A stretch of DNA of 58,339 nucleotides, filler included, from Circinaria calcarea (lineage: Eukaryota), in NCBI GenBank assembly GCA_051942165.1. It is 4 parts of 4 records of this genome, joined end to end, with 100 filler letters (N's around TTAATTAATTAA, not from the genome) between each part and the next. Parts side by side here need not be neighbours in the genome. Positions count along the whole stretch, not along the records: positions 43,860 to 58,339 come from JAVECS010000425.1; 3 more parts are not named here. One strand, 5' to 3'. Positions 14,530 through 55,061 of this stretch are shown piece by piece. A program made the position numbers and the translations under genes. The notes under the pieces are model-generated. The model saw only the letters and a list, made by a program, of their open reading frames with translations. It made no database searches and had not been told where the DNA came from. Within the stretch, counting starts at the first letter, position 1, and each line of letters opens with the position of its first letter.

Positions 14530-14629
14530 NNNNNNNNNNNNNNNNNNNNNNNNNNNNNNNNNNNNNNNNNNNNTTAATTAATTAANNNNNNNNNNNNNNN
14601 NNNNNNNNNNNNNNNNNNNNNNNNNNNNN
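14530..14629. other. Assembly spacer (N44-TTAATTAATTAA-N44)
   Basis: 100-bp N run with a six-frame stop linker, identical to the two other spacers. Confidence 0.97.
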
Positions 14630-17194
<2,565 letters not shown>

Positions 17195-29148: not shown

Positions 29149-29248
29149 NNNNNNNNNNNNNNNNNNNNNNNNNNNNNNNNNNNNNNNNNNNNTTAATTAA
29201 TTAANNNNNNNNNNNNNNNNNNNNNNNNNNNNNNNNNNNNNNNNNNNN
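29149..29248. other. Assembly spacer
   Basis: N44-TTAATTAATTAA-N44. Confidence 0.97.
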
Positions 29249-43759: not shown

Positions 43760-43859
43760 NNNNNNNNNNNNNNNNNNNNNNNNNNNNNNNNNNNNNNNNN
43801 NNNTTAATTAATTAANNNNNNNNNNNNNNNNNNNNNNNNNNNNNNNNNNNNNNNNNNNN
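43760..43859. other. Assembly spacer
   Basis: N44-TTAATTAATTAA-N44. Confidence 0.97.
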
Positions 43860-52789: not shown

Positions 52790-53332
52790 GATTCCACTCA
52801 GGATTGCGCAGTTCAGGCAGGCGCTTCGATAGTCAAACTAAAGTAGAAGCAGAGTATGAAGTTATCACACAAAGACAATTGTCTATGGAAGTTCCAGTCG
52901 GAAAGGTTCATCAGTAGGGTTAAAAGTAGAGCATCGCATTCGACAGCCTAGGTCCAGACATGATACAGTAAATTCGTCACGGAGTAATGTCATTTTAAAG
53001 GATAGTCTCCCATCCTGTATTTCGAGAGATACACTCCATATGCAGCAAGGTCATGAAGACCACTAGCAATCCTGAGCATGGAGACGTTGAGTTGTAGCGG
53101 CGAAAAGTCCTTCAAGTAACTCGCTCCATTCGAAGTTATAAAGTCCTCTTGTTAGTTAGAGTATCATATGTGGAAAACTGTGAATAGAGGACTTTGTAGA
53201 GTTTGAATATGCTGGGAACGAGGGTCTGCCAAAAAGTTGCATCGGCAAAATTACCTTAGCAGGACGCTCGAGATAACGATGATAAACCCCACATGTTTGT
53301 ATATGCAACTTAGATCCCGTAAATACATAAAT

Positions 53333-53505
53333 GGCAAGATGGCCGAGTGGTTATGGCGTGTGGTATGCGCCGATCTCTCCCACTGTTTACAACATGATAA
53401 ATGCTAAAAATTTACAACAGACTCAAGCGCAATGCTTACTTGACACCAGTCAAGGTGAATTCTCATAGGTTAATTCCTGCGTGGGTTCAAATCCCACTCT
53501 TGTCA
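53333..53505 (+). tRNA. tRNA-Leu(CAA): tRNA-Leu(CAA) with a canonical intron (53428-53459) and a second, spliceosomal-like intron (53363-53420)
   Basis: Acceptor stem GGCAAGA/TCTTGTC+A, A box TGGCCGAGTGG, long variable arm AGG-TTAATT-CCT, T arm GTGGG-TTCAAAT-CCCAC, anticodon loop CT-CAA-G, 3' anticodon strand TCTCA. Confidence 0.9.
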
Positions 53506-53510
53506 ACTCC

Positions 53511-53518
53511 TTTTTTTT
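53511..53518 (+). terminator. Pol III oligo-T terminator
   Basis: T8 run 5 nt after the tRNA discriminator base. Confidence 0.8.
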
Positions 53519-53762: not shown

Positions 53763-55061
53763 TCACCGCCTCCCCTTCCTCGCTCTGATCGATCCCGATC
53801 CCGATCCCGAACCCCCTGCAGTCATATTGACATTGTACCCCTGTCCATACGATCTCACATCAACCTGCACTCCCTCGTCGTCATCGTCGTCCTCGTCCTC
53901 ATCATCGTACTCGACAGTGGCAATGTCATGCTGCCTGCTTCCGGTAGAATACTCCCGGCGTAGGAGGGAAGGATCGGACGATGAGGCATACGGACGTGCC
54001 ACAGACGATGGTGGCGGGGAGCGCATGTACGGATACTGGACTTCCGCTGGCCCGGACACGTTCCGTCGACATTGGACATATTGGGCTGGGATCTGGGGTA
54101 AAGGAGGCGAGTAGGTTCGGTACTGATGCGGATCCACAGGGTAAGGTTGGGTGGAGGAAGATGACCGGGAACGGGATGTCCAACTGGTCTCAGCGGATTG
54201 TGGTCGGGGTAATGGAGGAGTATGTGTGCGGGAGGTGGATGACGGGAGATGTTGCTCAGGGACAGAGAAGTATCTCTTTTGTTGACTGCGAAATTGCGGT
54301 AGTGCTAGTGGAGGGGTTTGTTGACTTAGGCTGTGAGATGAGGTTGATCGAGAGCCGGGGCGTGACGAGGAACCGGATGGCGGGCTTGGCGCTGGCTCGT
54401 ATCCTATGGGCGCATAGATGGTTTTTCCATCAGGACCAGCAACCACAAACCCTGGTGGCAAATTTGGTCCATGACTTAGTCTATCATCTTCATTATTTTT
54501 AGTGAGAGAAGACCTGCTCTTCCTTCTACCAGCAATAGGGAGCACGGTCTTCCATGAGCTGGGGGACCTGCCACTGCTTTGACGTTTGTCGCTGGTTTTA
54601 GGTCTGGGTACTGGCTTCCTTGCCTTGGCGTCATCCTTCTGCCTTTGTCGTTCCAAGGCATCTAGCTCGGCTTGAGATAGCTTAACGACGGTTTTACCCA
54701 GCAGCTGCGCTCGTCGAATTCTCTCCGACGCCATCTGTACTAGCAATTCTTCCTTATCTCGAAGAGCTACCTGCATCGCCGCTCCATTCCGATCGTCGAT
54801 TTCCACCCTATCGTACGAACCATCAGAGTCATCCGAGTACTCATGACTCCGCCTATCTTTCAAATAAGGGCCAAGATCAGCCCCCGTAAAATTCAAGTCA
54901 TCACTAACAAAGGAGTGGTCCAACCCAACGCCTTGCCCATCGTCGGAATCACTGTCCAACTCTTCAAAACGCCGTTGTTCCTCCCATTGCCGTGTTTGTC
55001 TTTCCCATTCCTTCCTCCTTTTCCCTTGCCAAGCCCCTGATGGTCTTCCCCAAGGGGGCAT
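53763..55061 (-). CDS. Ser/Pro/Arg-rich hypothetical protein directly downstream of YIP3
   Basis: Intact 432-aa ORF with a structured-looking core MQVALRDKEELLVQMASERIRRAQLLGK..VKLSQAELDALER. Confidence 0.8.
   Translation of the reverse strand: MPPWGRPSGAWQGKRRKEWERQTRQWEEQRRFEELDSDSDDGQGVGLDHSFVSDDLNFTGADLGPYLKDRRSHEYSDDSDGSYDRVEIDDRNGAAMQVALRDKEELLVQMASERIRRAQLLGKTVVKLSQAELDALERQRQKDDAKARKPVPRPKTSDKRQSSGRSPSSWKTVLPIAGRRKSRSSLTKNNEDDRLSHGPNLPPGFVVAGPDGKTIYAPIGYEPAPSPPSGSSSRPGSRSTSSHSLSQQTPPLALPQFRSQQKRYFSVPEQHLPSSTSRTHTPPLPRPQSAETSWTSRSRSSSSTQPYPVDPHQYRTYSPPLPQIPAQYVQCRRNVSGPAEVQYPYMRSPPPSSVARPYASSSDPSLLRREYSTGSRQHDIATVEYDDEDEDDDDDEGVQVDVRSYGQGYNVNMTAGGSGSGSGSIRARKGRR

Follow-up and report, generated by a model that had tools for sequence, protein, structure and literature searches.

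Introns of eukaryotic nuclear tRNA genes are taught as being of one kind, spliced by proteins and located at position 37/38 in fungi and animals. How would a fungal tRNA be matured if its gene carried, besides such an intron, a second insert with the signals of an mRNA intron? This question is raised by a tRNA-Leu(CAA) gene of Circinaria calcarea, in which 58 nt interrupt the anticodon stem between tRNA positions 30 and 31. According to passages of a 2023 review (PMC10485636), the four-subunit tRNA splicing endonuclease (TSEN) of animals and fungi acts on 37/38 introns only. We examined the insert, the gene around it, the related genes found in public metagenomes and the explanations that compete for it. 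The window, that is, the whole stretch of DNA analysed, is 58,339 nt long and was stitched from four pieces of about 14.5 kb. The spacers between the pieces (14530-14629, 29149-29248 and 43760-43859) each consist of 44 N, TTAATTAATTAA and another 44 N. Their joins cut genes, one of them an AAA ATPase gene that ends near 14581-14630.

Identity of the tRNA gene and state of its exons

The gene occupies 53333-53505 on the plus strand. The Rfam tRNA model matches this interval end to end (model positions 1-71) with 36.3 bits against a gathering score of 29 and has to accommodate 98 nt as an insertion in the anticodon arm; the match was obtained on a small region with lax filters only. A default Rfam run on the whole window with gathering filters returned no match at this locus or elsewhere, and ARAGORN without introns found no tRNA in the whole window. 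The tRNA-Leu(CAA) gene is the sole tRNA in the window.

We excised 53363-53420 (58 nt), 53428-53459 (32 nt) or both in silico and submitted each product to ARAGORN. When both inserts were cut, an intronless tRNA-Leu(caa) was called; when the 58 nt alone were cut, the call was tRNA-Leu(caa) with an intron. The uncut locus was called Ala-tgc with a 92-nt intron and the product lacking the 32 nt alone Val-tac, both of which are nonsense calls. The original prediction, made from the sequence alone, had held that the cloverleaf closes only without the 58 nt and had proposed running a tRNA finder with and without 53363-53420; with ARAGORN, the Leu(caa) call indeed appeared only after this segment was removed. 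It had further expected standard finders to miss such genes, and ARAGORN and default Rfam either missed or miscalled this one.

Once the intervening sequences are removed, ARAGORN and Rfam yield a cloverleaf with a class II variable arm and a CAA anticodon. The parts of the gene are collected in Table 1. They can be read directly and are as first described, with intact A box, B box, acceptor stem and T8 run and a separate intron at 37/38. The two boxes were assigned from the consensus sequences of A and B boxes.

Table 1 Features of the tRNA-Leu(CAA) locus, in positions of the window
Feature	Position	Strand	Basis or remark
TATATG, TATA-like element	53300..53305	+	read from sequence; 28-33 nt upstream of tRNA position 1; putative function
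Exon 1, tRNA positions 1-30 (acceptor 5' strand, D arm, first four anticodon-stem bases)	53333..53362	+	Rfam; ARAGORN after excision
A box TGGCCGAGTGG	53340-53350	+	within exon 1
58-nt spliceosomal-type insert, between tRNA positions 30 and 31	53363..53420	+	
Exon 2, tRNA positions 31-37, ACTCAAG	53421..53427	+	anticodon CAA at 53424-53426
Canonical tRNA intron, 32 nt, position 37/38, internal CTTGAC/GTCAAG hairpin	53428..53459	+	
Exon 3, tRNA positions 38-73 (anticodon-stem 3' strand, long variable arm, T arm, acceptor 3' strand, discriminator A)	53460..53505	+	
B box GGTTCAAATCC	53484-53494	+	within exon 3 T arm
T8 run, expected Pol III terminator	53511..53518	+	after trailer ACTCC, 5 nt past discriminator

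Related genes were sought in metagenomes. A scan with a T-arm/acceptor motif listed at least 110 loci, a set from which closer relatives may be missing, and 0 matches were obtained when the query was the 3' exon, variable arm included. A eukaryote-type leucine 5' start is present in 74 of the at least 110 listed loci. Among these matches, 15 loci carry GGCGTGTGACTCAAG uninterrupted and then an ordinary intron of about 23-43 nt, and the junction of GGCGTGTG with ACTCAAG is contiguous in 15 of the at least 110. An insert at 30/31 is absent from all 15 other tRNA-Leu(CAA) loci among the matches listed, suggesting that the insert of C. calcarea is lineage-specific.

The exons of the interrupted gene closely resemble those of the uninterrupted ones. 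Exons 1 and 2 taken together are identical at 37 of 37 positions to the contiguous 5' exon of L055, a fungal tRNA-Leu(CAA) gene from a metagenome, and differ by one base from L056 and from L106. Differences between the 3' exon and those of the listed loci are restricted to the variable arm, where the stem is still paired (AGG/CCT here, GGGC/GCCC in L055 and AAC/GTT in L056). Judged by their sequence, these are the exons of a working gene, with no decay. The anticodon stem contains a U-U mismatch at 29-41 (53361 and 53463; UGUGA/UCUCA). Since all 15 listed tRNA-Leu(CAA) loci share it, this mismatch is a family trait and not damage.

Two ARAGORN placements were set aside in the course of this comparison. 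The tRNA-Ala(tgc) reading of the uncut locus, obtained with introns allowed, was rejected because an A would occupy position 33; it is also ruled out by the acceptor, the D arm, the long variable arm and the ACTCAAG loop, all of which are those of the 15 fungal tRNA-Leu(CAA) loci. ARAGORN gave the canonical intron 34 nt, which we rejected in favour of 32 nt at 37/38. This placement is fixed by the 15 listed loci, which all resume with TCTCAT after the intron and in which the next base pairs, and covaries, with the far strand of the variable arm. The 37/38 intron of tRNA-Leu(CAA) is conserved in Metazoa according to a passage of PMC12530127. The 32-nt intron at 53428-53459 is an ordinary 37/38 intron of this tRNA, and the 58-nt insert is an additional, different element.

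Signals of the 58-nt insert and of comparable introns

The insert begins with GTATGC (53363-53368) and ends with ACAG, the CAG lying at 53418-53420. A branch-like GCTAAA is found at 53403-53408, with A 53407 located 13 nt from the end of the insert. All three elements are as the original prediction had described them, including the branch motif being one base off CTRAY: GCTAAA agrees with four of the five consensus positions and has A for Y at the last, where introns in the window have GCTAAT, GCTAAC, ACTGAC or ACTAAC. The C at +6 of the 5' splice site was likewise counted against the insert, although the genome uses GTATGC (see below). The excision can be shifted one base to the left (53362-53419) with the product unchanged.

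To estimate how often such signals occur together, we defined a signal set: GT at the start, R at +3 and G at +5, CTRA located 6-34 nt before the end, and YAG as the last three bases. The set is present in 6 of the 115,620 58-mers of the window and is far beyond chance for an unrelated insertion. The length of T runs, on the other hand, proved uninformative. It had been argued that the insert has no T run longer than 3 and that Pol III could read through it. The longest run is indeed 3, but TTTT is absent from 80% of the 58-mers of the window and the argument is therefore without weight; one of the eight comparison introns described below has a T run of at least 4. Neither repeat families or inverted repeats touching 53363-53420 nor further copies of the insert, by which an introner-like or other repeated insertion element would be recognised across a genome, were found in the 58-kb window.

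The insert was compared with mRNA introns of the same genome. Both strands were searched for GT..AG segments of 40-160 nt that contain an in-frame stop and, once removed, fuse two open frames of 60 codons or more. The 1,179 raw candidates were too noisy to be used unfiltered, and requiring G at +5, a length of at most 110 nt and at least 70 codons on each side reduced them to 82. Eight comparison introns were then chosen by eye among the 82 for their classical signals, which makes the comparison partly circular, and two of the eight have Pfam support. They are situated in pieces 1-3 of the window and the tRNA gene in piece 4, all four pieces being assumed to belong to a single genome. Their lengths are 49, 50, 50, 55, 57, 58, 59 and 65 nt; they start with GTAAGT (two), GTATGT, GTATGC (two), GTGAGT, GTGTGA and GTACGG, and all end with CAG or TAG.

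The two introns that start with GTATGC have the branches GCTAAT and GCTAAC. One of them, at 1073-1121 (GTATGC..GCTAAT..TAG), follows an exon that matches DUF7029 of Pfam to its last residue and precedes an exon that matches DUF7223. Since this Pfam-flanked intron starts with GTATGC, the hexamer is a 5' splice site used by the C. calcarea genome. The intron at 15033-15082 interrupts an AAA ATPase domain, which the downstream exon resumes at position 92 of 131 of the Pfam profile. The insert had been said to match the mRNA introns of the window. This holds for its GTATGC start and for its length, which lies within the 49-65 nt span of the comparison introns (n = 8, picked by eye, two Pfam-supported). 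The comparison supports the reading that the insert has the anatomy of the genome's own spliceosomal introns. One structural feature may affect its use. In the predicted fold of the precursor (53355-53371), a 7-bp helix forms between GGCGUGU, with which exon 1 ends, and AUGCGCC in the first bases of the insert. The 5' splice site lies inside this predicted hairpin, which could hide it.

Inserts outside 37/38 are not confined to C. calcarea. Among the matches listed, two of the 74 leucine-type loci, both of them tRNA-Leu(UAG) genes, carry such an extra insert. In L069, a 49-nt GTACGT..TACTAAC..TAG segment is located in the D loop between GGCAAGATGGCCGAG and TGGTCTAAGG. In L080, a 59-nt GTGAGT..CTAAT..CAG segment interrupts the anticodon stem at 28/29, in addition to a canonical intron of 27 nt. 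Because the splice signals of both inserts are textbook ones, it is hard to call them accidents. Removal of the insert from L080 restored the Leu(tag) call by ARAGORN; L069 without its insert received an erroneous Arg(tct) call, and we assign it to Leu(UAG) because it matches L093. Both flanks of L069 can be aligned with those of L093, the exons of the two are identical and L093 has no insert. From their sequences, the two look like a presence/absence pair at what is apparently the same locus in related organisms.

Two further loci were unusual in other ways. A tRNA-Leu(CAG)-type gene, L090, has an unusually long intron of 139 nt at the canonical position. The tRNA-Leu(UAG) locus L033 is identical to L093 in its 3' two-thirds, from TGCGTTTAGG on, and its 5' part was not found within 420 nt upstream; this could be due to a large insertion, a rearrangement or an assembly break.

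A transcribed relative in biocrust

Two public runs share words with the locus, each 0.04 of them. They are a DNA run (X1) and a metatranscriptome (X2), both labelled biocrust metagenome, and no sequencing run of C. calcarea itself was among the public runs matched to the locus. Pieces of both runs were aligned to the locus at 80% likeness. In X1, the neighbouring genes of the relative show 62 differences over 716 nt and 74 over 1,240 nt, and a 315-nt contig covers 53446-53517 and extends beyond this interval at both ends. The gene adjoining the tRNA gene is a 432-codon ORF on the minus strand (53763-55061) with no Pfam match. Its counterpart in the biocrust relative is conserved: 74 differences were counted over 1,240 nt of DNA and 7 over 267 nt of RNA. 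Depth is inflated over a short low-complexity stretch inside this ORF (53873-53913), to which numerous unrelated metagenome contigs align, their loose ends rich in GTC/GAC.

The tRNA gene itself is represented in X2 by a contig of 178 nt and depth 28.9, with 0 differences over 53446-53506. The 30 letters that precede 53446 in this contig were aligned by us and read CAATAG, where C. calcarea has CAACAG, then an unchanged ACTCAAG and the start of the canonical intron with 3 substitutions and 1 missing base. Since a gene free of the insert would read GGCGTGTG before ACTCAAG, the relative carries the insert. The preservation of splice signals in relatives had been named in advance as a check. What the relative offers in this respect is a 3' end of TAG in place of CAG, by which YAG is kept, together with unchanged exons, the readable part of its insert being 6 bases.

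The distribution of the changes also bears on the state of the gene. Five changes are visible in the relative (4 substitutions and 1 single-base deletion), and all of them fall within the 38 intron positions and none within the 53 exon positions. If changes were placed at random, the chance of finding five of five in introns would be about 0.01. Provided that the same organism also gave rise to the X2 pieces that lie downstream of the P450 gene and differ by 12% and 15%, the chance of 53 unchanged exon bases is below 0.004.

In X2, intergenic DNA on either side of the tRNA gene has zero cover. The contig ends 3 nt past the discriminator and begins about 3 nt before tRNA position 1, assuming equal upstream lengths. 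As the flanks are uncovered and the contig hardly extends beyond the tRNA gene, it appears to have originated from RNA. The contig is an unspliced precursor in which both introns are kept, and it indicates that the gene is transcribed. No joint across 53362/53421 was present among the X1 and X2 pieces listed, and X2 leaves 53010-53413 uncovered; neither observation carries weight in one direction or the other, since capture of short RNAs is poor. The sole RNA contig of the locus retains both introns, and neither a spliced junction nor a lariat was seen, which we count against removal by the spliceosome.

Explanations of the insert and their significance

Taken together, the signals, the exons and the related loci make it likely, in our judgment, that the 58 nt are a spliceosomal-type intron in a working tRNA-Leu(CAA) gene. 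Three other explanations were weighed against this one. The locus may be a disabled copy of the gene, which either received an intron-like insertion by chance or holds a real intron sequence that stays in the RNA, while intact copies supply the tRNA. The lack of a spliced product in X2, where the only RNA contig retains the insert, is what such a copy would give, and the off-consensus GCTAAA and the absence of the insert from the 15 other tRNA-Leu(CAA) loci among the matches listed point the same way. However, a disabled copy would hardly be expected to contain a signal set that just 6 of 115,620 58-mers possess, or a 5' exon that is identical throughout its 37 bases to that of the working-type L055. 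Nor would it be expected to have the insert in common with a diverged relative whose 5 visible changes all avoid the 53 exon positions. The depth of the precursor contig, 28.9 in comparison with 3-6 for pieces of neighbouring mRNAs in the same library, argues in the same direction, although depth is a poor measure of expression. We consider a disabled gene unlikely, yet worth keeping in mind.

The remaining two explanations accept a functional gene and differ in how the 58 nt are removed or how the RNA is made. Excision by TSEN or another structure-specific nuclease, followed by ligation, would parallel the ectopic tRNA introns of Cyanidioschyzon merolae and archaea. As described in PMC3728597 and PMC4090602, these introns also lie off 37/38, can be multiple in one gene and are missed by standard finders, so that ectopic and multiple tRNA introns do exist in a eukaryote (PMC3728597); moreover, the 37/38 intron already makes the C. 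calcarea pre-tRNA a client of TSEN. The introns described there, however, form a bulge-helix-bulge that the tRNA endonuclease cuts, whereas here there are GT, a branch-like motif and AG, and no such fold was found: the central helix pairs at 2, 2 and 1 of 4 positions in three cut placements, although this is a weak test, since the canonical intron as a control also reaches 2 of 4. Cleavage would have to occur at 30/31, whereas the fungal-type enzyme is limited to 37/38 introns in the passages of PMC10485636, and the GT..CTAA..AG signals of this insert and the textbook ones of L069 and L080 would be left without explanation. Removal by such a nuclease thus appears very improbable to us. Even less credence is given to the proposal that Pol II reads the locus as part of a longer non-coding transcript, which is spliced co-transcriptionally and from which the tRNA is released later. 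Such a transcript would account for the recruitment of the spliceosome, but it is at odds with the intact A and B boxes and the T8 run right after the gene, and with the X2 contig of the relative, whose 178 nt stop within a few bases of the tRNA ends (equal upstream lengths assumed) and are accompanied by no cover on either flank.

We propose that the tRNA-Leu(CAA) of C. calcarea probably needs both the mRNA-splicing machine and the tRNA-splicing enzyme for its maturation. Pol III, directed by the internal A and B boxes, would transcribe the whole 173-nt body and stop at the T8 run. The spliceosome would then excise the 58 nt by way of GTATGC, a branch A near 53407 and the CAG, and the 32-nt intron would be taken out by TSEN and a ligase. 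TSEN might also act first, since four pairs (27-30/40-43) could form around a bulge of 58 nt. This account is partly supported: the type of the intron is well supported, while the spliceosome as the agent of its removal, transcription by Pol III and whichever order the two steps take are inferred.

Spliceosomal introns in genes for non-coding RNA have precedents. Passages of PMC5855946 cite mRNA-type introns in the U6 snRNA genes of Schizosaccharomyces pombe and other fungi (Tani and Ohshima 1989, 1991; Canzler et al. 2016), as well as introns in U1, U2 and U5 of Rhodotorula and in rRNA genes (Takahashi 1993, 1996; Bhattacharya 2000). Potashkin and Frendewey 1989 on U6 introns is listed in PMC5832005, a passage of which reports 138 spliceosomal introns in fungal U3 snoRNA with a mean branch-to-acceptor distance of 15 nt. 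The U6 introns are the closest parallel to the tRNA insert. Both are short GT-AG introns with a branch site and interrupt fungal genes for small, structured non-coding RNAs of the Pol III type; both are lineage-specific, and their positions vary. The splicing of U6 introns has been demonstrated, whereas the tRNA-Leu(CAA) insert is known from its sequence signals. The tRNA, unlike U6, lies outside the spliceosome, which makes reverse splicing at the active site a less obvious origin of the insert. Also unlike U6, the tRNA-Leu(CAA) RNA additionally needs the protein-only tRNA splicing pathway. The introns of U3, U1, U2, U5 and rRNA genes are of the same type and rest on the same computational evidence, and the branch-to-acceptor distance of 13 nt observed here is close to the U3 mean in the passage of PMC5832005. 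Most of their host genes, however, are transcribed by Pol II or Pol I, unlike a tRNA gene.

The original prediction had stated that spliceosomal introns are known from fungal U6 and rRNA, which agrees with the passage of PMC5855946; tRNA is not among the classes named there (U6, U2, U5, U1 and rRNA). Searches of the full-text literature outside subscription journals and supplements turned up no account of tRNA genes with spliceosomal introns, and the single phrase match (bioRxiv 10.64898/2026.07.09.736142) reads 'non-spliceosomal tRNA introns'. Spliceosomal introns in non-coding RNA genes are thus already known. What would be new is the tRNA as a class of host and the dependence on two splicing systems.

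Beyond this gene, we lean slightly towards a broader proposal. The spliceosome would be an obligatory tRNA-maturation enzyme in this lineage, and doubly interrupted genes would constitute a widespread but unannotated class in fungi, produced by repeated intron gain or loss as in L069 and L093 and helping to explain tRNA genes that seem to be absent from fungal annotations. If spliceosomal removal of the insert is true, the spliceosome would gain a new class of substrates, and this would be the second natural case, after U6, of a Pol III transcript that it handles. Fungal tRNA genes would then be under-counted by standard finders. The tRNA-Leu(CAA) locus offers a small and well-defined substrate for studies of intron gain in structured RNAs. 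For the organism itself, the supply of this tRNA would be coupled to the capacity for mRNA splicing.
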